A stretch of 56,001 nucleotides of DNA from an uncultured Flavobacteriales bacterium. GTDB taxonomy: Bacteria > Bacteroidota > Bacteroidia > Flavobacteriales_D > CAJJDF01. Numbering within the stretch: the stretch's first letter is position 1; each line of letters starts with the position of its first letter. Both the position numbers and the translations under genes were made by a program. The notes under the pieces were generated by a model. It did not search any database. It had not been told where the DNA came from and saw only the letters and a list, made by a program, of their open reading frames with translations. The DNA is taken from positions 1 to 56,001 of the forward strand of contig CALLII010000012.1 of the NCBI GenBank assembly GCA_938009745.1. The letters run 5' to 3'. Positions 3,124-42,007 of this stretch are shown one piece after another.

Positions 3124-4374
3124 TTACTTATACTTTTTGATAATTAAAGTGGCATTATGACCTCCAAATCCAAATGTATTTGATAGCGCATAATTCACTT
3201 CTCTTTCTTGAGCTTTATTGAATGTAAAATTCAATTTTTCGTCAAGTTCAGGATCCACTTCTGTGTGATTAATTGTAGGTGGAACAATATTTTCAGTCAC
3301 AGCTAAAACACAAGCAAGAGCTTCAATAACACCAGCAGCACCTAATAGGTGACCAGTCATTGATTTTGTTGAGCTAATGTTTAGGTTGTAAGCATGTTCT
3401 CCAAATACTTTTTGAATCGCTTTGGATTCTGCAATATCTCCAAGTGGAGTAGAAGTACCGTGTACGTTAATATAGTCAATCGCACTTGGTTCAATATTGG
3501 CCTCTCTAAGAGCTTCATTCATTGAATTACGAGCGCCTAATCCTTCTGGATGTGGAGCAGTAATATGATGTGCATCACCTGATGCGCCACCTCCAACTAC
3601 TTCTGCATAAATTTTGGCTCCTCTTGCAATGGCATGGTCATATTCTTCAAGCATCATAGCCCCTGAACCTTCACCTAATACAAATCCATTTCTATTTTTA
3701 TCAAATGGTCTTGAGGCTGTCTGTGGACTCTCATTACTTTGTGATAATGCATGCATAGCATTGAACCCACCAACACCTGTTTCGGTAACAGCAGCTTCAG
3801 ATCCACCAGCAAGAATAGCGTTAGCTTTTCCTAATCTGATGTAATTAAAAGCATCAATTAAAGCATTGGTTGAGGAAGCACAAGCCGATACCGTGGCAAA
3901 GTTTGGCCCCATAAAACCATATTTAATTGAAATGTGACCTGCAGCAATATCTGCAATCATTTTTGGTATAAAAAAAGGGTTGAATTTTGGTGTTCCATCT
4001 CCACTAAAAAAGTTTTCACACTCGTCTTGTAAAGTTTTTAGACCCCCAATTCCTGCTCCCCAAATTACACCTATTCTAGTTGTATCAACTTCTTCTAAAT
4101 TCATTCCTGAATCTAATACAGCCTCATCTGCTGTAACAATAGCATATTGAGAAAATACATCTAGTTTTCTTGCTTCTTTTCTGTGAAGATGATCTTCTAT
4201 ATTGAAGTTCTTTATTTCACAAGCAAATTGTGTTTTGAATTTCTCGGCATTAAATTTAGTAATTTTTGCTGCCCCTGAAACTCCTTTTTTCAAGGAATCA
4301 AAATAATCGGAAGCATTATTCCCAATTGGGGTTAATGCTCCGATTCCAGTTATTACAACTCTTTTTAATTCCAT
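3124..4374 (-). CDS. fabF: 3-oxoacyl-ACP synthase II
   Basis: KRVVITGIG start; catalytic Cys in SACASS; His in HGTST and GHLLGAAG; SNTFGFGGHN C-terminus; directly downstream of acpP. Confidence 0.97.
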   Translation of the reverse strand: MELKRVVITGIGALTPIGNNASDYFDSLKKGVSGAAKITKFNAEKFKTQFACEIKNFNIEDHLHRKEARKLDVFSQYAIVTADEAVLDSGMNLEEVDTTRIGVIWGAGIGGLKTLQDECENFFSGDGTPKFNPFFIPKMIADIAAGHISIKYGFMGPNFATVSACASSTNALIDAFNYIRLGKANAILAGGSEAAVTETGVGGFNAMHALSQSNESPQTASRPFDKNRNGFVLGEGSGAMMLEEYDHAIARGAKIYAEVVGGGASGDAHHITAPHPEGLGARNSMNEALREANIEPSAIDYINVHGTSTPLGDIAESKAIQKVFGEHAYNLNISSTKSMTGHLLGAAGVIEALACVLAVTENIVPPTINHTEVDPELDEKLNFTFNKAQEREVNYALSNTFGFGGHNATLIIKKYK

Positions 4375-4386
4375 AGGAAGCTAATT

Positions 4387-4620
4387 TTATTTAGCGTCAT
4401 TAATGAATGTTACTGCATCTCCAACTGTAGCAATTTTTTCTGCTTGGTCGTCTGGTATTGCAATATTGAATTCTTTTTCAAATTCCATGATTAGTTCAAC
4501 AGTATCCAATGAATCTGCTCCTAAATCGTTTGTAAAGTTAGACTCTAGAGTTACTTCAGATGCATCTACACCTAATTTATCTACTATAATCGCTACTACT
4601 TTATCTTGTATTTCTGCCAT
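4387..4620 (-). CDS. acpP: Acyl carrier protein
   Basis: [14 protein letters not shown] phosphopantetheine site; start moved to ATG at 4620 (MAEIQDKV), giving 77 aa. Confidence 0.97.
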
Positions 4621-4727
4621 TTTCTTTTTTATTTTAATGTTTAGATTGTGCAAATAAAATTAATTAATTCCTATTAACCAAGAATTCGCACACTACTTTC
4701 TTAACAAAGTCTGTTCCAAAAAGATTT

Positions 4728-5468
4728 TTATGCCTTCGCTTTAATCAGCTCTCTGTTCATTCTTGCTATGTTATCAAGGGATATCCCTTTAGGACATTCT
4801 ACTTCACAAGCCCCTGTATTTGTACAGTTTCCGAATCCTTCGATATCCATTTGGTTTACCATGTTTATTACTCTGTCTTTAGCTTCAACTTGCCCTTGTG
4901 GCAGTAATGCGTATTGAGACACTTTGGCAGAAACAAATAACATTGCTGACGAATTTTTACAAGTCGCTACACATGCTCCACATCCAATACATGTTGCTGC
5001 ATCCATTGCTAAATCAGCATCAGCCTTAGGAATTGGTAATGAGTTTGCATCTTGCGTATTTCCAGAAGTATTTACCGAAATATATCCTCCAGCTTGCTGA
5101 ATTCTATCAAAAGCACCTCTATCTACCATTAAATCCTTTACCACAGGAAATGAATTTGCTCTAAAAGGTTCAATATGGATAGTTTCTCCATCTTTGAACA
5201 TTCTCATGTGCAACTGGCAAGTTGTAACTCTTCTATCAGGTCCGTGAGCCTCTCCGTTAATGTACATAGAGCACATTCCACAAATTCCTTCTCTACAATC
5301 ATGATCAAATGCAACAGGCTCTTCTCCTTTTTCAATTAATTCATCATTAAGAATATCCATCATTTCAAGAAAGGACATGTGTCCTTCTATATTAGAAATA
5401 GGATATGTTACCATTTTTCCTGGTGACTTAGCATCTTTTTGACGCCATATTTTAAGTGTTAAATTCAT
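4728..5468 (-). CDS. sdhB: Succinate dehydrogenase/fumarate reductase iron-sulfur subunit
   Basis: [16 protein letters not shown] and CTNTGAC Fe-S motifs; third gene of the sdhCAB order. Confidence 0.95.
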
Positions 5469-5473
5469 ATCAA

Positions 5474-7489
5474 TTATTTATAAGATCTTTGCTTTAACTC
5501 AATATTTTCGTATTTCAATTCTTCTTTGTGAAGTACTGCATCTGACGGTAAACCTTTATATTCCCATGCAGAAACAAATGTATAGTTTTCATCATCTCTT
5601 TTTGCTTCTCCTTTTTGTGGACCATCAATTTCAACAGACTCTTCTCTAAAGTGTCCTCCACAAGATTCTTCTCTTGTAAGTGCATCTTTAGCAAATAGTT
5701 CTCCTAGTTCAAGGAAATCTGCTACTCTTCCAGCTTTTTCAAGCTCTCTGTTTACTTCGTGAGTTCCTCCTGGTACTCTTACGTTTTTCCAGAAATCTGC
5801 TCTTAGTTCTTGAATTTCAGCAATCGCTTCTTTCAATCCAGTTTCATTTCTAGACATCCCAACTTTGTTCCAGATAATGTTACCAAGTTTTTTGTGAAAA
5901 TAATCTACAGCTTTTGTTCCGCCAGTATTTACTAACTTATCAAGGGTATCTTTCACTGAGTTTTCTGCTTCTTCAAATGCAGTAGTATCTGTCGGTATAG
6001 CTCCAGTTCTAATATCATGAGATAAATAATCTCCTATTGTGTAAGGAAGTACGAAATATCCATCAGCTAATCCCTGCATTAACGCAGATGCTCCAAGTCT
6101 ATTTGCTCCGTGATCAGAGAAGTTTGCTTCTCCAATTGCGTAACAACCTTTTACAGTAGTCATCAAGTTGTAATCTACCCACAATCCCCCCATGGTATAG
6201 TGAGTTGCTGGATAAATCATCATTGGTGTTTTGTATGGATCCTCATCTACAATTTTCTCATACATCTGGAATAAGTTACCGTATTTTGCTTCTACAATAT
6301 CTTTTCCTAAATCATAAATTCTCTGAGCAGAAGCATTTTCTTCATTATGAATTTTTGCTTGCTCTTTTCCGTATCTTTCAATAGCCGATTTAAAATCTAA
6401 ATAAACTGCCTCTCCAGTTTTGTTTACTCCAAATCCAGCATCACACCTTTCTTTTGCAGCTCTAGACGCTACATCTCTTGGTACTAAGTTTCCAAATGCA
6501 GGATATCTTCTTTCCAAGTAATAATCTCTTTCATCTTCAGATAAATCGGTTGGCTTTTTCTTTCCTTCACGGATAGCCTTTACATCTTCTAATTTTGCAG
6601 GAACCCAAATTCTTCCGTCATTTCTTAATGACTCAGACATCAATGTTAATTTAGATTGATAATCTCCCGATCTTGGAATACAAGTTGGGTGAATTTGTGT
6701 AAAACAAGGGTTAGCAAAGTAAGCTCCTTTTTTGTGCGTTTTCCATGCGGCAGTTACGTTACTTCCCATTGCATTAGTAGAAAGGAAATATAAGTTTCCA
6801 TATCCTCCAGATGCTATTACAACTGCGTGAGCTGAGTGTCTTTCTAGTTCTCCAGTAATGAGGTTACGAGCAATAATCCCTCTTGCTTTACCATCAACCT
6901 TTACTATATCCAACATTTCGTGTCTGTTGTACATTTCAATTTTACCTCTTGCAATTTGTCTGTTCATTGCTGAGTATGCTCCGAGTAATAACTGTTGTCC
7001 AGTTTGTCCTTTTGCATAAAAAGTTCTTGAAACTAATACTCCTCCAAAAGATCTGTTATCCAACAATCCTCCATAATCTCTTGCAAATGGAACTCCTTGG
7101 GCTACACATTGATCAATTATATTAGATGATACTTCTGCAAGTCTGTAGACGTTTGCCTCTCTAGATCTGTAATCACCACCTTTTACTGTATCGTAAAATA
7201 AACGGTAATTAGAATCTCCATCTCCTTGGTAATTCTTGGCTGCATTAATTCCACCTTGTGCCGCAATTGAATGGGCTCTTCTTGGTGAATCTTGGTAACA
7301 AAATGCTTTTACATTATAACCTTGCTCGGCAAGTGTAGCTGAGGCAGAACCACCAGCAAGACCAGTACCAATTACGATAATGTCAATTTTTCTTTTGTTA
7401 GCAGGGTTTACTAAGTCAATTTTATCTTTATAAGTTGTCCATTTATCTTTTAATGGACCTCCTGGGACTTTTGAATCAAGTGTACTCAT
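5474..7489 (-). CDS. sdhA: Succinate dehydrogenase/fumarate reductase flavoprotein subunit
   Basis: GTGLAGG FAD-binding motif, AHSIAAQGG flavinylation His, HYTMGG, HGANRLG; start placed at ATG 7489 (MSTLDSK), 7 nt after the sdhC stop. Confidence 0.96.
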
Positions 7490-7496
7490 AGTCTTA

Positions 7497-8180
7497 TTAA
7501 TGTTGTAAATGATGATAAATTGCAATGAAAATGAATCCTAATGGAACAACTATTGCAAAAGCGTTTCCGAATTTTTTGATAAAGTTTTTTCCTTTGCTGA
7601 CTCCAACTGACTGGAAAGACGATTGAAATCCATGCATCAAATGAAGGGCTAATAGCACAAATGAGATGATATAAATAATTACTCTGATTGGGTCTTCAAA
7701 TTTCATGACCAACTCTTCATAATATCTATATCCACTGTTTGGGTCATTTGGATTAATCAATCCTGTCATGTCTCCACCAGCATATTTCACTGTCATTTCA
7801 TGAACCCAAAAATCGTAAAAGTGTAATCCTAAAAATGCTAACACTACTAATCCAGTAACAATCATGTTTCTTGATATCCAAGATGAATTTGTTCCTGGTT
7901 TGCTATAGGCATACTTTACAGATCTTGCACTTCTATTTTGTAATTCAAGAACAATCCCCATAATAAAGTGAAAAAACACAGCAAATATTAATACTGGTTG
8001 TAGTGCAAATTGAACAACTGGATTAGTTCCCATGAATTGAGACACTTCATTAAACATATCTGGGCTCACAACTGAGAGCATATTGATTGTTAAATGCTGA
8101 AGCAGGAAAAACATTAGAAAGAATCCTGATAGAGCCATTAATATTTTTCGGCCTATTGTAGTGAATTTTGATTTAGACAT
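7497..8180 (-). CDS. sdhC: Succinate dehydrogenase cytochrome b subunit
   Basis: [10 protein letters not shown] start, five hydrophobic segments with conserved His (QHL, FHF, LHF, HLMHG); upstream of sdhAB. Confidence 0.93.
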
Positions 8181-8260
8181 TTTTGAAATTAGTTTTTTCT
8201 TAAGTGTAGTAAAAGTAACTTTTGCTTAAATTTAAAGCAAGTATTAAACACAAAAATACG

Positions 8261-8283
8261 TTATTTATATAGATTCTTGATAA
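8261..8283. promoter_or_regulatory. Imperfect AT-rich palindrome, candidate Fur/PerR-type operator between sdhC and cvpA
   Basis: TTATTTATA-TAGAT-TCTTGATAA, a 9-5-9 inverted repeat resembling TTATTTAGA-N5-TCTAAATAA as I recall it from Bacteroidota iron-related promoters. Confidence 0.4.
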
Positions 8284-8289
8284 AAACTT

Positions 8290-8297
8290 TATCTTTG
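8290..8297 (+). promoter_or_regulatory. Bacteroidota -7 promoter element for the CvpA gene
   Basis: TATCTTTG is an exact TAnnTTTG match, 6 nt before ATG 8304. Confidence 0.7.
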
Positions 8298-8303
8298 GTT
8301 CCA

Positions 8304-8825
8304 ATGAATTTTATTGATATTTTTATTCTGGGTATTTTAATTTGGTTTGGATACAAAGGCTTTAGGAAAGGTCTTGTTTTTGAATTAGTTAGTATAATCG
8401 CTTTGGCATTAGGGATTTATGGTGGTTTAAAATTTTCTGACACCACAGCCGAGTATTTAGCATCCTATATAGATTCTGAATATTTAGAAATAATTTCTTT
8501 TACAGTCACTTTTTTAGTCATTCTTCTTTTGGTTTTTGCTGCAGGTAAAGTAGTAGAAAAAATAATAAATCTTGTTGCCCTAAAATTAGTGAACAAACTC
8601 CTTGGTGCTTTTTTTGCTATTATTAAAATAGGATTAGCATTAGCTGTACTCATTACTATAGTTGAGTCTTATGATCAAAAACTAGAATTTATTCCTAAAG
8701 AAGTTAAAAGCGAATCACTTACGTATGAGCCTTTGTTAAATGTAGCGAATACTGTTTTGCCAGAAATTGAAAAGAATAATTTATTTAAAGAGCTTAAGTC
8801 AACTTCCTTAGGAGAAACCGAATAA
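8304..8825 (+). CDS. CvpA family (colicin V production) membrane protein
   Basis: MNFIDIFILGILIWFGYKGFRKGLVFEL start and NKLLGAFF motif typical of CvpA; about 4 TM segments; start moved to ATG 8304. Confidence 0.85.
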   Translation: MNFIDIFILGILIWFGYKGFRKGLVFELVSIIALALGIYGGLKFSDTTAEYLASYIDSEYLEIISFTVTFLVILLLVFAAGKVVEKIINLVALKLVNKLLGAFFAIIKIGLALAVLITIVESYDQKLEFIPKEVKSESLTYEPLLNVANTVLPEIEKNNLFKELKSTSLGETE

Positions 8826-33554: not shown

Positions 33555-33581
33555 AAAGAGGTGTTTTACACCTCTTTTTTT
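33555..33581. terminator. Hairpin between the convergent SH3 gene and recQ, overlapping the recQ stop
   Basis: AAAGAGGTGT-TTT-ACACCTCTTT plus a T tract. Confidence 0.7.
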
Positions 33582-35488
33582 GTGAGTTTTAATTGGTGAT
33601 TTTCTGTTTGGGCAAGTTCATTATTGTCTAGCTTCCATTGAATTACTTCAATAACTTCTTTTTCACCAAAAGAGCCTAGGCTGTTAACCAAATCTTTAAT
33701 ACTTTTTGATTCAGATTGTAATAGAGCAACAAGTTTTTTATCAATGAAAGAAAAAGTGTTATTGGAAATAGACTTCTTGGTTTGAGCTATGCAGATATCA
33801 CAAATACCACAGTTTTCGAATTCTGATTCATCAAAATAAGACAGTAGTAATTTACTTCTACAAATTACTTCCGACTCACAGTATTTAAACATAAAATCCA
33901 ATTGAGATTTCTTGATCTTCTTTCTATCAGCATAAATCTCTTTAGGAATTCTTAACCTGTCTTCATGAACTCTATCTTGGGTATAAGTAAGCAAAGGAAC
34001 ATCCGAAGCTGGCTGATAATCAATTATCTCTATAGAAGTTAAGTGAGCAAGCATTGTTTCTACTTCCTTTTCAGTCTTTTTAAGAGCGTTACCAATTAGG
34101 TAAGGAGATATTTTACAATAACTATCAAAAATTCCTTCATTCTTCCTCAATAAGAACTGAATTAACCCCTCGTATGGAGCATTTCTTACTTGAAACGTAT
34201 AAAGCTCCGAATTAGAAACTATAGATTTAACTCTTGGGTGACGATAAATAGCTTCTGATAAAAAAACATAATCAGCCAATGATAAAATAGATAGACAATG
34301 ATGTGCAACAATTACCTGAAAATTAAACTGATTACAAAACTCAGTAATGTTAAATTCATAATTAGTAAACTGTCCGCCACCAATTGCCAACCTAAAGTAG
34401 TTCCCAAGTGCATTATATACTTTTTTGATCATATCTAATTCTGGAAACTCCAGTTCATGAAATCTTTCTAGGCTTAGTTTATCACTTGGTTTGTAAAGTA
34501 ATGCCGCAAAAGACTTTTTACCATCTCTTCCTGCTCTCCCTGCCTCTTGAAAGTAAGCTTCAGGTGAAGCTGGTAGTTCCATATGTACAACTACACGAAC
34601 ATTCGGTTTGTCAATTCCCATCCCAAAAGCATTGGTAGCCACAATGGTTTTTACTTTTTCGTCAATCCAGTTTTTCTGTTTTTCATCTCGGTCTTGTTGC
34701 CCTAAACCACCATGGTAATAATCTGCAGAAATACCATTTTGGGTTAAGTATTGAGCAACTTCCATAGTGCTTTTTCTTGTATTGGTATACACAATGGAAG
34801 AGCTGTTTGCCTTTTTCAAAATCTTAATAAGTCGTTCTCTTTTATTCTCTTCTTGCAGAACTAAATATCCTAAATTTTCCCTTGCGAAACTTTGTTTTAT
34901 GATGTTCTCTTTTTCGATAGATAATTGCTCCGAAACATCTTCAATCACTCGCTTATTAGCCGTAGCAGTAACTGCCAAAAAAGGAACAGACTTATCTATA
35001 ACCTCTCTTAAATCCTTAATTTTTTGATAAGCTGGTCTAAAATCGTGACCCCATTGCGAAATACAATGAGATTCATCTACCGCAATTAAATTCACTTTCA
35101 TTTTAGCTACTCTGACCTGAAAAATCTCAGTTTGCAAGCGCTCAGGAGAAACATATAGGAACTTGTAATCGCCATACACACAGTTATCTAGTGCAATGTC
35201 TATTTCTCGTTTATTCATTCCCGAGAAAATAGCCAAAGCCTTTATTCCTCTTTTGTTCAGGTTCTCAACCTGATCTTTCATAAGAGCAATAAGGGGAGAA
35301 ACTACAATGCATATTCCTTCATTAAGCATTCCGGGAATTTGATAGCATATAGATTTACCTCCTCCAGTTGGCAACAAAGCTAGTGTATTATTCCCATCCA
35401 AAACGGAGTTAATAATATCTTCTTGCGAATCACGAAAAGAATCGTAACCCCAATATTGTTTTAATATGTCGTGACTATTTTGGATCAT
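33566..35488 (-). CDS. recQ: RecQ family ATP-dependent DNA helicase
   Basis: PTGGGKS, DESH CISQWGHDFRP, ATNAFGMGIDK, QEAGRAGRDG, CR...CGICDIC Zn site; ATG 35488. Confidence 0.92.
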   Translation of the reverse strand: MIQNSHDILKQYWGYDSFRDSQEDIINSVLDGNNTLALLPTGGGKSICYQIPGMLNEGICIVVSPLIALMKDQVENLNKRGIKALAIFSGMNKREIDIALDNCVYGDYKFLYVSPERLQTEIFQVRVAKMKVNLIAVDESHCISQWGHDFRPAYQKIKDLREVIDKSVPFLAVTATANKRVIEDVSEQLSIEKENIIKQSFARENLGYLVLQEENKRERLIKILKKANSSSIVYTNTRKSTMEVAQYLTQNGISADYYHGGLGQQDRDEKQKNWIDEKVKTIVATNAFGMGIDKPNVRVVVHMELPASPEAYFQEAGRAGRDGKKSFAALLYKPSDKLSLERFHELEFPELDMIKKVYNALGNYFRLAIGGGQFTNYEFNITEFCNQFNFQVIVAHHCLSILSLADYVFLSEAIYRHPRVKSIVSNSELYTFQVRNAPYEGLIQFLLRKNEGIFDSYCKISPYLIGNALKKTEKEVETMLAHLTSIEIIDYQPASDVPLLTYTQDRVHEDRLRIPKEIYADRKKIKKSQLDFMFKYCESEVICRSKLLLSYFDESEFENCGICDICIAQTKKSISNNTFSFIDKKLVALLQSESKSIKDLVNSLGSFGEKEVIEVIQWKLDNNELAQTENHQLKLTKKEV

Positions 35489-35573
35489 TACAAGGATAAA
35501 AATACGAAATGCCAGTTGTTTTTTGTTCAATTGTTTCCATTCATTCTTATCTTTGGTAAAACAAATTTTAATT

Positions 35574-36467
35574 ATGCTTACAATTACTCCTTCAGAAATT
35601 ACTGTACCAAAATTACATCACTATTTATTGGGAGCAGTTGGACCTCGTCCAATAGCTTTTGCAAGTACAATTGATAAAGATGGGAACAAAAATTTAGCTC
35701 CATTTAGTTTTTTCAATGTATTTAGTGCTAATCCACCAATTATGGTGTTTTCTCCAGCTCGTAGCGGACGAACTAACACTACTAAAAATACATTTGATAA
35801 CGTAAAAGAAGTGGCTGAAGTAGTAATTAATATTGTGAATTACAGTATTGTAGAGCAAATGTCTTTAGCTAGTTCACCTTTTGGTGCAGATGTTGATGAA
35901 TTTGTAAAATCGGGATTAACTCCAATAGCTTCGGAAACTGTGAGGCCATTCAGAGTAAAAGAATCTCCCGTACAATTTGAGTGTAAAGTAAACGAAGTGG
36001 TAGAGTTAGGAACCGAAGGAGGTGCAGGAAACTTAGTAATTTGCGAAGTAACCAAAATTCATATTGATGAATCTATTTTAGACGAAAACGGAGCAATAGA
36101 TCAGCACAAAATTGATTTAGTATCCCGAATGGGAGGAAACTGGTATTGCAGAGCAAATGCCGAATCCATGTTCGAAATTAAGAAGCCAATTATGACAATT
36201 GGAGTAGGTTATGATGCTATCCCAGAAGACATTAAAAACAGTAAAATCTTATCAGGAAACGACCTTGGTAAATTAGGAGGAATAGAAGAATTACCTAACG
36301 AAACAGACGTAAACGACCATAAATTAATTGAATTAAGTGAGTTGTTTGTCGATTTAGAAGACGAACAAGATAAGCTAGAATTGGAGCTTCACAAAAGAGC
36401 CAAACAAGAATTGAAAGAAGATAGGCTGAAAGAAGCTTGGATGACGCTTTTGGCTTTTAATGAGTAA
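35574..36467 (+). CDS. Flavin reductase family protein (DIM6/NTAB-like)
   Basis: PRPIAFAST, NLAPFSFFN, VKESPVQFEC, RMGGNWY; TATCTTTG -7 element at 35548-35555; ATG 35574. Confidence 0.88.
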   Translation: MLTITPSEITVPKLHHYLLGAVGPRPIAFASTIDKDGNKNLAPFSFFNVFSANPPIMVFSPARSGRTNTTKNTFDNVKEVAEVVINIVNYSIVEQMSLASSPFGADVDEFVKSGLTPIASETVRPFRVKESPVQFECKVNEVVELGTEGGAGNLVICEVTKIHIDESILDENGAIDQHKIDLVSRMGGNWYCRANAESMFEIKKPIMTIGVGYDAIPEDIKNSKILSGNDLGKLGGIEELPNETDVNDHKLIELSELFVDLEDEQDKLELELHKRAKQELKEDRLKEAWMTLLAFNE

Positions 36468-36933: not shown

Positions 36934-36957
36934 CTAAAAAAGTAAATATTGAAAATG

Positions 36958-36986
36958 AAAGGGACGATTTTATCGTCCCTTTTTTT
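36958..36986 (+). terminator. Intrinsic terminator
   Basis: AAAGGGACGAT-TTT-ATCGTCCCTTTTTTT. Confidence 0.85.
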
Positions 36987-37017
36987 GTAACTTGTTTCTT
37001 TAAATTAACTTAATTAA

Positions 37018-38595
37018 TTGCCTCATACTATTTCAGATATAATTGATTTTTCTCCCTTCAAAAAAAAGAATGGAGTAATCTACATTTCGGAAGTTGAGCA
37101 GGAATTTGAATCACTTTATATTGATACTCGAGATAAAGAATCTAGAGTTTTATCAGATGATGAAGTTAAGCTTTTACCAAAAACCAGTTCTGTTTATAAA
37201 TTACACAATGAATGGGAATTAAGAGAAAATACCACAACTCGATTTTCATCCTATTTAGTTAAAAAAGACGTAAAAAACATATTAGATTTAGGTTGTGGAA
37301 ATGGTTGGTTTACAGCTGCAATGGCAAAAGTAAAACCAAACTCTAATGTTATTGGAGTTGATTTAAATATAACAGAATTAGAGCAGGCAGCTCGCATCTT
37401 TAGTTCAGAAAGTATTAAGTTTTTGTATCACAATATTTTTGATGAATCAACAATGTTTAATAATAAATTCGACTTAATTACATTAAATGCTTCTGTTCAA
37501 TATTTTCCTGACTTTGATATTTTATTTGATAAATTAAAAGAGTTTTTAATACCAAATGGAGAAATTCATATTCTGGATTCTCCCTTTTATGGTTCTAATG
37601 AAATTATGAAAGCTGAGGAAAGAACTAAATTCTACTACAAAAGTTTAGGTAATGAAAAACTAAGTGACTATTATTTTCATCACAACATAAACTCTACTAA
37701 AAGCTTTGATGTTCTTTATAAACCTAAAAATGGAAAATGGGCGAAATTATTTAATAGCAATCAATCACCTTTTTTATGGTTAAAGTATATCAATAATGAG
37801 CAAGAAACTTCGGTTAAAAAAGGATTCTCTAAAATTGCTCAAGAATATGAGGACTTAGAAGAAAACTCTACTTTAATTCAGTATAAAAGAAAAAAAATAC
37901 GGGCGCATTTACTCACTAGGTTAGAGCCAAATAGTTCGGTTTTAGAGATAAACTGTGGTTCTGGATTAGATGCACTTTATCTCGCCAAAAAAGGACATAA
38001 AGTTTTGGCAACAGATATTGCAGAAGGGATGCTTAAGGAGGTTGAAACTAAAATAGCTATCAATAATTTACAAGAAAACCTAAGCTGTAAAAAACTATCG
38101 TTTGAGAATTTAAGAAGCTTTGAAGAAGAACAGTTTGGAGGATTGTTTTCTAATTTTGGAGGATTAAATTGTATTGATTTTCCTGCTTTGACTGATATTT
38201 TAAAAGATGCAAGTAAGATTATAAAACCGAACGGAGTAATCACTTTAGTTATAATGCCAAAAATTACTTTTTACGAATGGTTTAAGATTTTTAAAGGAAA
38301 AAAATCCGCTTTTAGGAGATTAAAAAAAGGAGGAGTGATTGCAAATGTTGAGGGAGAAAAAGTAAGAACTTTCTATCATTCAGCCCAAGCTGTAAGTAAA
38401 ATCTTAAAAAAAGATTTTAAAGAAATTAAAGTAGAAAATGTGTTTACAATTGGCCCCTCTGGTAGCTCATATAACTTTCCTGTAAACCACAAAAGATCAT
38501 TTATTTTCCTTACTAAATTTGATGCTTTTTGCAACAGAACAGGATTTCTGAAGGGTTTTGGTGATTATTATGTAATTAGTGCCAAAAAGAAATAA
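37018..38595 (+). CDS. Tandem (two-domain) class I SAM-dependent methyltransferase
   Basis: Two SAM motif-I sequences, LDLGCGNGW and LEINCGSGLD, each followed by an acidic beta2 residue (GVDL, ATDI); FSNFGGLNC in domain 2; TTG start. Confidence 0.85.
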   Translation: MPHTISDIIDFSPFKKKNGVIYISEVEQEFESLYIDTRDKESRVLSDDEVKLLPKTSSVYKLHNEWELRENTTTRFSSYLVKKDVKNILDLGCGNGWFTAAMAKVKPNSNVIGVDLNITELEQAARIFSSESIKFLYHNIFDESTMFNNKFDLITLNASVQYFPDFDILFDKLKEFLIPNGEIHILDSPFYGSNEIMKAEERTKFYYKSLGNEKLSDYYFHHNINSTKSFDVLYKPKNGKWAKLFNSNQSPFLWLKYINNEQETSVKKGFSKIAQEYEDLEENSTLIQYKRKKIRAHLLTRLEPNSSVLEINCGSGLDALYLAKKGHKVLATDIAEGMLKEVETKIAINNLQENLSCKKLSFENLRSFEEEQFGGLFSNFGGLNCIDFPALTDILKDASKIIKPNGVITLVIMPKITFYEWFKIFKGKKSAFRRLKKGGVIANVEGEKVRTFYHSAQAVSKILKKDFKEIKVENVFTIGPSGSSYNFPVNHKRSFIFLTKFDAFCNRTGFLKGFGDYYVISAKKK

Positions 38596-38692
38596 TAACT
38601 CAATTCAATATTGTTTATCTTGTAAGCACAAATTACACTATCCCATCGGTTAGTATAAAAAACTGATAATTAGATTTTACTAAACTTATTAA

Positions 38693-39778
38693 ATGAGTAC
38701 AGCAGACGTTTTAAAAAATTTAAATAAAAAAGTGCTTCCACAGAAGTACTTATTCCCACCTGCTTATATAGTTTTAGGTGTAAATAATGTATGCAACTTA
38801 CATTGTAAAATGTGTGATGTTGGGACAAAAAATCTTGATAGTAATTTTGCTCAGAACTTAGTTGGAACCCACCCAATAAACATGCCTTTAGAGCTAATTT
38901 CTAATGTGATAAATCAAACTGCCGAGTATTTTCCTAAGACTAAGTTGGCTTATGCTTTTACAGAACCAATTGTATATCCTCATTTAATTGAATCTTTACA
39001 ATTAGCCAGAGATAAAAACTTATATACATCAGTCACTACTAATGCATTAAGTTTAAAACAAAAAGCCATTCAATTATCAGAAGTTAAATTAGATGAATTA
39101 TTTATTTCATTGGATGGTCCACAAGATATTCATAATGAAATAAGAGGGCACAAGAAATCTTTTCAGAAAGCAATTGAAGGAATAGAATTGATTTCTGCAC
39201 AAAAACATGTTCCAAAAATATCAGTAATTTGTGCAATTACTGAATGGAATATTGGGCATTTAAAAGAATTGTTAACCGCATTGAAACCTTATCCAATCCA
39301 TGAAATTGGGTTTATGCATACTCAGTTTAATACTAAAGAATCAGCTCAAATTCACAATGAATCAAAATGGGGCATAGACTATCCAACCTATGATTCAAAT
39401 GTTGATTTGATAGATTTTTCTAAAATGGACTTGGAATTATTATACAAAGAGATAAAAGAAATTAAAAGTGATTTATACCCATTCAACATATTTTTTTCGC
39501 CTGAACTCCAGTCTATGGCAGCATTGAAAAATTATTATTTCAATACAACAAAATTCATAGGGAAATCATGCAATGCAGTATTTACAAATTTGATGATAAA
39601 ATCGGATGGAAGTGTAATACCTGCTCATGGAAGATGTTATAATCTTTCAGTAGGAAATATTTATGAATCTTCATTAAAACAGATTTGGCAATCGGAAGTG
39701 TTATCAAAATTAAGAAAAGATCTTAGTTCAGCAGGAGGATTATTCCCTGGTTGTAGTAGATGTTGTAGTGCAGTTTAA
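38693..39778 (+). CDS. Radical SAM protein with C-terminal Twitch/SPASM-like domain
   Basis: CNLHCKMC (CxxxCxxC), TTNA, ISLDG..HNEIRG; C-terminal C...DGSV...RC...GNI...IW...CSRCC. Confidence 0.88.
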   Translation: MSTADVLKNLNKKVLPQKYLFPPAYIVLGVNNVCNLHCKMCDVGTKNLDSNFAQNLVGTHPINMPLELISNVINQTAEYFPKTKLAYAFTEPIVYPHLIESLQLARDKNLYTSVTTNALSLKQKAIQLSEVKLDELFISLDGPQDIHNEIRGHKKSFQKAIEGIELISAQKHVPKISVICAITEWNIGHLKELLTALKPYPIHEIGFMHTQFNTKESAQIHNESKWGIDYPTYDSNVDLIDFSKMDLELLYKEIKEIKSDLYPFNIFFSPELQSMAALKNYYFNTTKFIGKSCNAVFTNLMIKSDGSVIPAHGRCYNLSVGNIYESSLKQIWQSEVLSKLRKDLSSAGGLFPGCSRCCSAV

Positions 39779-39787
39779 ATAATTAAA

Positions 39788-41308
39788 GTGAAAAATAAAA
39801 TAATAATATTCAATCCGAGAAGTGCTAATGCAAAGCATAGAATTCCTAACTCTATACTTCAAGTTGGAGCATCTATTCATGGTAAATTTGAGTACGTATT
39901 TGTAGACGGAAACTTAGAGAAAGATCCTTATAAAACAATTGAAAACTATTTTAAAACAGGAGAATTCAAATACTTCTGTTCTACAGTAATGCCAGGTCCT
40001 CAGTTACAGCAGGCAATACCTTTCACTAAAAAAATAAAAGAACAATTTCCAGATTCAATTACAGTTTGGGGAGGATATTTTGCAGCAAACCAATATAAGG
40101 TTTCTATCAATTCTGGATATGTAGATTATATCGTGAGTGGTCCCGGAGATGTTGCTTTTCCATCCTTGATAGGGGCTTTAGAAGAAAACAAGTTGGATGA
40201 GATACCTAAAATCAAAAATCTTATTTACTTAGAAGAGAACAATACTATAACAAAAACCGTTAAAGAGGCTTTATTGAACCAAGACAAATTACCCGATTTA
40301 CCTTACGAATACCTCAATGAATTTTATCCTCTTGAAGGATATTTATCTAAGACTTTCATGGGTAAGAAAACATTTGCATATCACTCTAGTATGGGATGTC
40401 CTTTCTCCTGTTCGTTTTGTGCGGTAGTGCCAATTTACAATGCAAGATGGCAAGGAAAATCAGCAGAGTCTATTTATAAAGACGTTAAGTTTTTTAAAGA
40501 TTCATATGGAATTGATGCAATAGAATTTCACGACAACAACTTTTTTACTTCTCGAAAAAGGGTAATGGCTTTTTGTGAATTAGTAAAGGATGATGGAATT
40601 CAGTGGTGGGGAGAAGGAAGAATAGATACATTAAATAAATATTCAGATGAAGAACTGAAATTAATGCGTGAAGCAGGTTGCGTAATGATATTTTTGGGTG
40701 CTGAAACAGGAAATGATGAAGTGCTAAAGCAAATGAATAAAGGAGGCACTCAAACTGGAGCTATGATTGAGGAGTTTGTACTAAGAATGAAAAAAGCAGA
40801 CATTATTCCAGAATTATCTTTCGTTTTGGGATTACCTTTAGAAACTGAAAAACAAGTATTTGACCAAATAAACTGGGATATTAATTTTATTAAAAAGATT
40901 AAAAAAATAAACTCACAAGCAGAGATTATTATTTATTTATACAGTCCTGTTCCAACTGAAGGCTCGGAACTTTATAAAACCATAACTGAAGCAGGGTTTA
41001 ACTTTCCAGAGAAATTAGAAGATTGGATTTCGCCAGTTTGGGAAAATTTTGACTTAAGAAAAAATCCTCTTACACCATGGTTAACTCCTAAAATGATAAG
41101 TCGAATTAAAGATTTTGAAACGGTATTACAAGGAGTTTTCCCTACAGTATCGGATTTTAGAGTAACTAAACTTAAAAGAGCAATAGTAAGAACTACTGCT
41201 GTTGCAAGATATAAATTAGGATGGTATTCTTACCCCTATGAAATAAAAGCATGGCTTAAGATATGGAAATACCGTCAGCCAGAAATTGAAGGATTTTATT
41301 CTGAATAA
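39788..41308 (+). CDS. B12-binding domain radical SAM protein (class B methyltransferase-like)
   Basis: N-terminal Rossmann-like B12 domain (VWGG...DYIVSGPGD), SSMGCPFSCSFC, FHDNNF, GAETG; GTG start. Confidence 0.88.
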   Translation: MKNKIIIFNPRSANAKHRIPNSILQVGASIHGKFEYVFVDGNLEKDPYKTIENYFKTGEFKYFCSTVMPGPQLQQAIPFTKKIKEQFPDSITVWGGYFAANQYKVSINSGYVDYIVSGPGDVAFPSLIGALEENKLDEIPKIKNLIYLEENNTITKTVKEALLNQDKLPDLPYEYLNEFYPLEGYLSKTFMGKKTFAYHSSMGCPFSCSFCAVVPIYNARWQGKSAESIYKDVKFFKDSYGIDAIEFHDNNFFTSRKRVMAFCELVKDDGIQWWGEGRIDTLNKYSDEELKLMREAGCVMIFLGAETGNDEVLKQMNKGGTQTGAMIEEFVLRMKKADIIPELSFVLGLPLETEKQVFDQINWDINFIKKIKKINSQAEIIIYLYSPVPTEGSELYKTITEAGFNFPEKLEDWISPVWENFDLRKNPLTPWLTPKMISRIKDFETVLQGVFPTVSDFRVTKLKRAIVRTTAVARYKLGWYSYPYEIKAWLKIWKYRQPEIEGFYSE

Positions 41309-41971
41309 ATGAGAAATTTAATTAAAAAAATAGCTCATCCTTTTCTAAAGTTTCTTTCGTTTAAGTTCCATAGCAAACCAAGAAAATATTCATACAAAGA
41401 AATATCTGTTTTGGTCCATCCCGAAGTTTTTCCACCTCACTTTACAATCAGCACAAAGATTTTATTGGATTACATTAATGAGCTGGATTTAACTAACAAA
41501 TCAGTTTTGGAATTAGGTTGTGGTTCAGGTATTATTTCTTTGTTTGCAGCTTCTAAGGGAGGAGTTGTAACGGCAAGTGATATAAACCCTATAGCAATAG
41601 ATTTTTTAAATAAAGCTGCCAGTAAAAATGAGCTAAAAGTTAATGCTTTAGTCTCCGATTTATTTCAAAATATTTCACAAAAAGAATTCGATTATATTAT
41701 AATTAATCCACCTTATTACCCCAAGAATCCTTCAGAAATGAAAGAGATGGCTTGGTTTTGCGGAGAGGATTTTATTTATTTCGAAAATCTGTTTATTCAA
41801 TTAGCATCCTTTGTTCCCAATTCTACCATTTTAATGATATTATCAGAAGATTGTGAAATTGAAACAATTAAGGCAATTGCAAGTAAAAATAAACTTGAAT
41901 TTCTGAAAGTGCATGAGACAAAAGTTTCGTTTGAACGGAATTTCATATTTTCAATTACAAAAACAGACTAA
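41309..41971 (+). CDS. HemK/PrmC-like methyltransferase (NPPY type)
   Basis: VFPP, LELGCGSGIISL, SDINP, SDLF, INPPYY; abuts the B12-rSAM stop. Confidence 0.82.
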   Translation: MRNLIKKIAHPFLKFLSFKFHSKPRKYSYKEISVLVHPEVFPPHFTISTKILLDYINELDLTNKSVLELGCGSGIISLFAASKGGVVTASDINPIAIDFLNKAASKNELKVNALVSDLFQNISQKEFDYIIINPPYYPKNPSEMKEMAWFCGEDFIYFENLFIQLASFVPNSTILMILSEDCEIETIKAIASKNKLEFLKVHETKVSFERNFIFSITKTD

Positions 41972-41976
41972 AATAC

Positions 41977-41984
41977 TATCTTTG
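41977..41984 (+). promoter_or_regulatory. -7 promoter element for the VOC gene
   Basis: TATCTTTG exact match, 23 nt before ATG 42008. Confidence 0.7.
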
Positions 41985-42007
41985 CAACCTAATTCAAAAC
42001 CAACAAA

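Follow-up and report, generated by a model that had tools for sequence, protein, structure and literature searches.

The 56,001-nucleotide stretch analysed here (the window), positions 1 to 56,001 of contig CALLII010000012.1 from an uncultured Flavobacteriales bacterium (assembly GCA_938009745.1), carries an island of four co-directional genes for S-adenosylmethionine (SAM)-dependent and radical SAM enzymes. We propose, with a probability of roughly 0.6, that this island comprises two detached tailoring modules of a Bacteroidota-wide, uncharacterised cobalamin/radical SAM system that decorates a cell-surface glycan. The four genes and the signals at their edges are as follows.

36958..36986 (hairpin 36958-36982): hairpin and T run at the end of the upstream DUF3127 gene; left edge of a variable insertion site
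37018-38595, + strand: MT2x, fused double class I SAM methyltransferase, 525 aa, TTG start
38693-39778, + strand: Twitch/SPASM radical SAM enzyme, 361 aa
39788-41308, + strand: predicted B12-type (class B) radical SAM enzyme, called the anchor below, 506 aa, GTG start
41309-41971, + strand: NPPY (HemK/RsmC-like) small methyltransferase, 220 aa, beginning right after the anchor stop codon
41977..41984, + strand: TATCTTTG motif, 24 nt 5' of a glyoxalase-family gene; right edge of the insertion site and outside the system

All four open reading frames (ORFs) are intact and lie on the same strand, with intergenic gaps of 97, 9 and 0 nt. The ORFs, Pfam domains and motifs agree with the enzyme types and the tight spacing of the last three genes reported in the initial annotation, and domains and conserved motifs likewise bear out the SAM and radical SAM tailoring chemistry it had described. 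The gaps contain no ORF of at least 25 aa, so the island encodes neither a precursor peptide nor a cyclase or transporter, as had been noted. The hairpin and TATCTTTG are plausible island boundaries, both being predicted signals. Both are present as described before; neither signal type is enriched, with 2 terminator-like sites in the region against 2.7 expected and 99 TAnnTTTG motifs in the window against 89.6 expected, and the promoter role is a prediction. A scan for sigma-70-type promoters, uninformative for Bacteroidota, returned 21 sites against 27.7 in shuffles. Sequence conservation at the left junction extends from the hairpin through the TTG start codon of gene 1 and is shared by this genome (G000) and two members of its genus, G002 and G004 (G001-G011 denote the other genus members, and L numbers the loci compared). 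A mobile element as carrier of the island was considered and rejected: no convincing direct or inverted repeats flank the island, and its G+C content (0.30-0.32) is the same as that of the flanks.

Comparison of related loci reveals that the four genes belong to separable modules. Whole-genome searches found anchor orthologs (63-93% identity) in 6 of 40 relatives and in 1 of 12 same-genus genomes. In these six ortholog loci the NPPY gene always lies 3' of the anchor (6/6), a Twitch/SPASM gene is present in two, and the halves of MT2x occur as separate genes, each beside a B12 paralog, in four. Across Bacteroidota, 472 relatives of the anchor were found in species genomes and the best 80 were kept; the comparison covers 86 anchor loci, the window included. 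The NPPY gene is present in 80 of these 86 loci and lies immediately downstream of the anchor on the same strand in 77, with a median gap of -1 nt. The anchor-NPPY pair retains 60-93% identity across Flavobacteriales, Cytophagales, Chitinophagales and Sphingobacteriales. Less frequent are the B12 paralog "B12a" (58/86), MTc, a methyltransferase resembling the C-terminal half of MT2x (51/86), NT, a nucleotidyltransferase-like protein (29/86), the Twitch/SPASM gene (26/86) and MTn, which resembles the N-terminal half of MT2x (14/86).

The initial annotation had read the island as one dedicated multi-methylation pathway and had tied this reading to co-occurrence of the four genes across genomes. 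The four genes do not form such a self-contained unit: homologs of all four occur together in 2 of the 85 other loci, and a fused MT2x lies beside the anchor in none of the 85. The Twitch/SPASM gene and the NPPY gene (MTS domain) occur together in 23 of these 85 loci. All 51 MTc loci contain B12a; MTc therefore belongs with the paralog and not with the anchor. We thus find the anchor and the NPPY methyltransferase to be a tight pair with the Twitch/SPASM gene as an optional partner, while MT2x belongs to a second module made up of a nucleotidyltransferase, a B12 paralog and two methyltransferases. The island combines the (Twitch/SPASM)-B12-NPPY module with a pair of methyltransferases that has been relocated and fused.

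The partners of this pair lie elsewhere in the genome, on contig C70. The C70 locus is the sole multi-gene glycan cluster detected in the assembly and contains, in order, a 277-aa unknown protein, Wzx (Polysacc_synt), Wzy_C, two GT4 glycosyltransferases, a Wzy_C/Bac_transf fusion, NT and a B12a gene that is 57-66% identical to B12a genes elsewhere. The Wzx/Wzy cluster components are found on C70 and are absent from both island and window, which makes the island an accessory of such a cluster and not part of it. In G001 the same polysaccharide locus is directly followed by orthologs of window genes 3124-8825, and on a single contig of G004, 38 kb separate a B12a gene from the island. On the basis of this synteny, the C70 locus of G000 very probably lies about 40 kb upstream of the island, across the C70/C12 contig break. 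Since the NT and B12 paralog partners of the MT2x pair are on C70, the apparently missing substrate of the island is most likely explained by genes outside it.

Further support comes from the variable site between the DUF3127 gene and the glyoxalase-family gene (window 36934-42007), compared in 12 genus genomes. The site is empty (~130 nt) in G007, G009 and G010, holds ~1.2 kb of filler in G001, G006, G008 and G011, and in G005 holds ~1.2 kb with a type IX secretion system (T9SS)-tailed protein on the other strand. The remaining genomes carry enzymes at this position: MT2x and a GT4 in G002; MT2x in G003, where the locus ends inside the gene; MTc, B12a, a 374-aa unknown protein, GT87, FkbM, anchor and NPPY in G004; and the four island genes in G000. 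G002 and G003 hold their MT2x orthologs, at 58-60% identity, at this site. In G000, G002, G003 and G004 no methyltransferases follow B12a in the polysaccharide locus and they are present at the hot spot (4/4), while in G001, G006, G008 and G011 MTc and MTn follow B12a and there is no island (4/4). In these eight genus members methyltransferases thus occur in the polysaccharide locus or at the hot spot, never at both. G003 and G011 were tested as predictions once the pattern had been seen in the other six, and both fit.

Three side observations concern other contigs of this genome. The 603-aa fusion on C70 (L097:7433-9244, +) joins an O-antigen ligase/polymerase-type membrane domain (Wzy_C) to an initiating phosphoglycosyl transferase (Bac_transf) and is kept at the equal position in G001, G006, G008 and G011. 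Between the polysaccharide locus and the contig end lies a gene for an 1861-aa HYR-repeat protein with a CHU_C type IX secretion tail (L097:12576-18161, -), of which G004 holds only a 139-aa remnant at that place. Scattered companion pieces, a Wzz-like and Wzy_C pair and a GT2 that is 71-73% identical to the "GT2a" of related loci, are located at C123:18742-21183 and C87:11050-11790.

The related anchor loci share a recurrent gene order, NT-B12a-MTc-B12a-(MTn), followed by variable glycosyltransferases and modifiers and then by (SPASM)-anchor-NPPY. Cultured strains with the full locus include Flavobacterium terrae DSM 18829 (L038), Winogradskyella echinorum KCTC 22026 (L033) and Crocinitomix catalasitica ATCC 23190 (L084). 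Pfam annotation of the 44 largest neighbour clusters identified glycosyltransferases (GT4, two kinds of GT2, GT87 and PMT_2, the latter two GT-C enzymes), assembly functions (Wzx, Wzy_C, Wzz and an initiating phosphoglycosyl transferase) and modifiers (polysaccharide deacetylase, sulfotransferase, carbamoyltransferase, FkbM, GNAT, AlgX/SGNH and NKWYS). Some loci also encode an ATP-binding cassette (ABC) protein, whose best scores are to PglK and MsbA. At least one non-ABC glycan-type gene is present in the flanks of 72 of the 85 other loci, compared with 27 of 344 windows of 21.5 kb from this genome (uniform BLAST, E < 1e-6, at least 100 aa, ABC reference excluded; background taken from this genome alone). 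Among the substrates that had been left side by side (surface glycan, lipid, protein or small metabolite), these neighbourhoods favour a surface glycan; lipid and metabolite become minority readings, and a peptide is unlikely. The proposed inspection of homologous neighbourhoods thus yields glycosyltransferases and a deacetylase, no conserved small ORF beside the module in 86 loci, and no fatty-acid, isoprenoid or sphingolipid gene among the 44 clusters. Within the 26 SPASM loci, FkbM and a sulfotransferase each occur once and MT275, a 275-aa methyltransferase, does not occur; this rare co-occurrence fits interchangeable glycan modifiers.

Two features of these loci are recorded in their own right. 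A conserved membrane peptide of 52 aa with the C-terminal sequence ...PF(I/V)YS(L/I)F is encoded next to carbamoyltransferase genes in 7 of 86 loci (L012:13894-14052, L018:12187-12345, L037:13309-13467, L054:12232-12393 and others). Many Flavobacterium-type loci (L020, L022-L026, L028, L029, L031 and others) end, 3' of the NPPY gene, beside rplM-rpsI-rpsB-tsf, a fixed chromosomal position at housekeeping genes.

We then consider the proteins themselves. MT2x has two class I methyltransferase domains (Pfam; approximately residues 88-181 and 306-410), and its N- and C-terminal halves resemble the MTn and MTc genes, respectively, which stand as separate genes beside B12 paralogs in other genomes; in L012-L015 the halves match separate genes. 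Fused homologs form a modest family of 33 cluster representatives (501-536 aa, 34-72% identity). The Twitch/SPASM enzyme matches Radical_SAM (7.5e-16) and SPASM (1e-9; 39 bits against a cut-off of 21.5) in Pfam. Its CxxxCxxC cysteines (C34/C38/C41) are invariant in orthologs, as are the C-terminal cysteines C293, C315, C354, C357 and C358. A full SPASM domain has a seven-cysteine pattern with two auxiliary clusters, and a Twitch domain has one cluster. With regard to this distinction, the enzyme has five invariant C-terminal cysteines, and the solved structure nearest to its AlphaFold2 model (predicted local distance difference test score, pLDDT, 87.7) is the Twitch-type BlsE (Foldseek E 6.8e-14, template modelling score 0.67/0.73; Z 25.6, root-mean-square deviation 2.9 Å over 293 aligned residues). 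Further structural neighbours are SuiB (Z 23.7), SkfB (22.5), ChlB (22.4), anSME (21.9), DesII (21.8) and BtrN (19.5).

The anchor is the most conserved gene of the system, with a mean column identity of 79% over 38 orthologs in which C204, C208 and C211 of its CxxxCxxC motif are invariant. It matches Radical_SAM in Pfam (3.8e-15). The B12-binding match reaches 19.6 bits here against a cut-off of 32.1, and 46.2 and 40.4 bits in orthologs of 63-64% identity; the anchor profile matches TokK over residues 74-355. The CxxxCxxC motif and the B12-binding domain point to a class B radical SAM enzyme, for which cobalamin binding and methyl transfer are predicted, and a cobalamin riboswitch is present in this genome. 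The anchor may also carry out a non-methylating radical reaction, because its best solved matches are AprD4, then TokK and OxsB. No fused, longer forms of the anchor were found at E <= 1e-30, which is weak evidence.

The NPPY enzyme carries an MTS domain (Pfam, 2.6e-18) and the sequence INPPYYP, in which N133, P134 and P135 are invariant. It has the NPPY motif IV and the class I fold of the HemK/PrmC, HemK2 and RsmC group, and its profile matches MJ0882, RsmC, METTL5, N6AMT1/HemK2, HemK and, more weakly, the apramycin N-methyltransferase. A complex prediction for anchor and NPPY enzyme (score 0.00, mark 0.32) gives no answer either way on binding. The NT model (pLDDT 92.9) combines an N-terminal winged helix with an ANT(4')-like nucleotidyltransferase domain that was recognised in a wide structure search (Z 8.7, 113 residues aligned), and the invariant motif G-S...D-x-D is kept; a Foldseek search with the same model gave no match at E <= 0.001. 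For NT and a 376-aa unknown protein, the Protein Atlas matches are Bacteroidota hypothetical proteins only.

None of the four island proteins reaches a curated NCBIfam cut-off or falls in a characterised isofunctional family; the initial annotation had likewise been unable to match the cluster to a characterised pathway. The best matches are BioC for MT2x (97.8 bits, cut-off 184.95), a tungsten-cofactor maturase for the Twitch/SPASM enzyme (78.4 bits, cut-off 380), BchE for the anchor (113.2 bits, cut-off 481.35) and NF011529 for the NPPY enzyme (105.8 bits, cut-off 162). For the anchor, all 25 matches to class B isofunctional families lie under the cut-off, the families tested including BchE, HpnJ, PhpK, HpnR, ApyD, BzaD, the methyl-coenzyme M reductase glutamine C-methylase and the C-methylases of ribosomally synthesised and post-translationally modified peptides (RiPPs). 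The NPPY enzyme likewise remains under TIGR00537 (70 vs 87 bits), TIGR03534 (64.3 vs 199.1 bits) and RsmC (51.4 vs 295 bits). Public names of close anchor homologs are generic.

From the observed gene content, conservation, linkage, glycan context and complementary distribution, we infer the substrate and every chemical step of the following scheme, in which expression, cobalamin binding and product are predictions. The island would supply two sets of enzymes to the glycan assembled by the C70 locus: (I) a module (38693-41971) of Twitch/SPASM radical SAM enzyme, class B radical SAM enzyme and NPPY N-methyltransferase, and (II) MT2x, a fused version of the two class I methyltransferases that sister species place after the NT-B12a pair in the Wzx/Wzy locus and that the C70 locus of this genome has lost. 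The proposed site of action of these enzymes is the cytoplasm, where the target would be a precursor of this glycan, either lipid-linked or nucleotide-activated, modified on a sugar or on a substituent that is not a sugar. Hydrogen abstraction by the Twitch enzyme could lead to oxidation, decarboxylation or epimerisation, and the class B enzymes could carry out C-methylation or another rearrangement at an unactivated carbon. The NPPY enzyme would methylate an amino or amide nitrogen, a preferred target of NPPY enzymes, and O- or N-methyl groups would come from the class I domains of MT2x. More tentatively, the same data suggest phylum-wide, exchangeable cobalamin/radical SAM cassettes that would attach C-alkyl and N-methyl groups to a surface glycan or its nucleotide-activated substituent, would oxidise or decarboxylate it by radical chemistry, and would be shuffled between loci like serotype determinants.

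By analogy, the nearest solved relatives, which are sugar-acting, support this assignment: BlsE for the Twitch enzyme, AprD4 for the anchor, an apramycin N-methyltransferase among the matches of the NPPY enzyme, and ANT(4') for NT. Among solved sequences, AprD4 matches the anchor best (4.3e-13; profile 1.9e-11), and the apramycin N-methyltransferase is one of the profile matches of the NPPY enzyme (8.5e-8). In either system, a radical SAM enzyme would work alongside an NPPY N-methyltransferase whose substrate is a sugar. However, the AprD4 match covers the radical SAM core alone (anchor residues 197-375), AprD4 is not known to use cobalamin, the anchor scores 61.5 bits in the NCBIfam AprD4 model against a cut-off of 500, and the context of the island is surface-glycan assembly and not an antibiotic cluster. 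The best functional analogy for combined C- and N-methylation is found in gentamicin biosynthesis, where the class B radical SAM C-methylases GenK and GenD1 and the N-methyltransferase GenN, the same enzyme classes, act jointly on a carbohydrate. Here, no match to GenK/GenD1 was seen, and the gentamicin N-methyltransferase is weakly among the NPPY matches (3.4e-4).

BlsE is the Twitch-type cytosylglucuronate decarboxylase of the blasticidin S pathway, has a sugar acid as its substrate and is the nearest structure to the island enzyme; at 13-14% identity, and with peptide-acting SPASM enzymes within 2-4 Z units, its reaction type is not transferable. The NT-B12a pairing resembles fosfomycin Fom1/Fom3, in which the cytidylyltransferase domain of Fom1 activates a small group that is C-methylated by the class B radical SAM enzyme Fom3. 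NT differs from Fom1 in its fold, which is of the Pol-beta type, resembles ANT(4') and includes a winged helix at the N-terminus; phosphonate genes were not observed. In the biosynthesis of the bacteriohopanepolyol side chain, the class B-type radical SAM enzyme HpnJ remodels a lipid-attached sugar. HpnJ ranks near the top of the NCBIfam matches for both the anchor (1.6e-28) and the paralogs, but scores are 99.9-140.9 bits against a cut-off of 577.6 and the neighbourhoods contain no hopanoid genes.

Other explanations fit parts of these data. Tailoring of a lipid (for instance, the polyprenyl-phosphate carrier, the anchor of a glycolipid or some other lipid of the membrane) would agree with the GT-C (GT87, PMT_2) and GT2 enzymes of the polyprenyl-phosphate-sugar-using type in many related loci, and with weak NCBIfam matches of the B12 paralogs to HpnJ, HpnR and a ladderane-associated family, all far under cut-off. 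This reading is unlikely, given neighbours that are glycosyltransferases, Wzx, Wzy, Wzz and sugar modifiers, the sugar-acting solved relatives and the lack of lipid genes among the 44 clusters. That the closest solved relatives (AprD4, apramycin N-methyltransferase, BlsE and the ANT(4')-like match of NT) come from antibiotic pathways, and that some loci encode an ABC exporter, might instead indicate a diffusible, sugar-derived secondary metabolite of the aminoglycoside or nucleoside type in place of a surface polymer. We consider this improbable: assembly genes (Wzx, Wzy_C, Wzz and an initiating phosphoglycosyl transferase) are present in the loci, PglK and MsbA are the best-scoring references for the ABC protein, no scaffold-forming enzyme is found among the neighbour clusters, and the system is common in small-genome marine flavobacteria, beside ribosomal-protein genes.

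RiPP maturation, with cross-links introduced by the SPASM enzyme and methyl groups by the B12 enzyme and methyltransferases on a peptide encoded elsewhere, would draw on enzymes that are typical RiPP maturases. The close structural neighbours SuiB, SkfB, ChlB and anSME (Z 21.9-23.7) and weak NCBIfam matches to ApyD and RiPP C-methyltransferases point in the same direction. It is nevertheless very unlikely, because the island lacks a small ORF and no such ORF is conserved next to the module across the 86 loci, where the best family is the 52-aa membrane peptide (7 loci) and the second is ribosomal protein L34; a peptidase or leader-recognition gene is also missing from the neighbour clusters, and the context is glycan. 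Similarly, the resemblance of the NPPY protein to RsmC, METTL5 and HemK/N6AMT1 could mean that the NPPY and class I domains are housekeeping RNA or protein methyltransferases merely adjoining radical SAM genes, to which we give very little weight in view of the patchy distribution of anchor orthologs, the strict NPPY-anchor adjacency and the missed PrmC, HemK2 and RsmC cut-offs. Chance juxtaposition at a recombination hot spot, with no shared function, would account for cargo that differs between species, with a T9SS-tailed protein in G005, an empty site in G007, G009 and G010, and other cassettes in G002 and G004. It is equally improbable: three of the four genes recur as a unit, every enzyme-carrying cargo variant stems from the same system, and the 9- and 0-nt spacing indicates co-translation.

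Several points weigh against the decoration of a surface glycan by this system. The data are at the level of sequence and structure model. The BLAST test detected no glycosyltransferase, flippase or polymerase in the island or the rest of the 56-kb window, and 13 of the 86 loci, the window among them, have no glycan-type gene in the fetched flanks; the background rate was drawn from one small genome. The link between island and C70 in this genome is synteny with G001 and G004 across a contig break, and the genus members are kin, so that the 8/8 pattern may represent only two or three events. The anchor stands alone in two Lewinellaceae loci, and the peptide-acting SuiB and SkfB almost equal BlsE as structural neighbours. 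Gene calls followed a greedy longest-ORF rule, and clusters were formed at a minimum of 38% identity over at least 70% coverage, both heuristics of our own.

To our knowledge, such radical C-alkyl/N-methyl chemistry has been described for no bacterial surface polysaccharide. A full-text search over the main texts of one literature library returned no description of this gene set. According to a 2025 review of Bacteroidota O-glycosylation, O-glycans of this phylum are commonly methylated and the stage of modification is unknown; the words "radical" and "cobalamin" do not occur in that review (PMC12871550). A separate literature lead, MgmA/9CCB, was set aside, as it is the methyl-coenzyme M reductase glutamine C-methylase, unrelated to glycans.

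If the proposed glycan decoration is correct, surface glycans of many marine, freshwater and soil Bacteroidota would bear radical-made modifications at unactivated carbons, which standard glycan analysis and genome annotation would overlook. Such modifications could affect recognition by phages and predators, antigenic diversity and the slowness of polysaccharide degradation, and would tie cell-surface structure to the supply of vitamin B12. The genus offers a natural experiment, with sister genomes in which the methyltransferases reside in the polysaccharide locus or at the hot spot, or are missing. Two features are specific to this window: the system is divided between two loci and includes a fused methyltransferase, and within the genus the methyltransferases occupy one place or the other.

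The neighbours of the island in the window (G+C ~32%) include T9SS-tailed proteins, a combination that assigns the genome to the Bacteroidota. We note that a RecQ-family helicase ORF (33566-35530, -; TTG start) overlaps a divergent flavin-reductase-like ORF (35523-36467, +) by 8 nt at their starts; at least one of the two listed starts is probably placed too far upstream.

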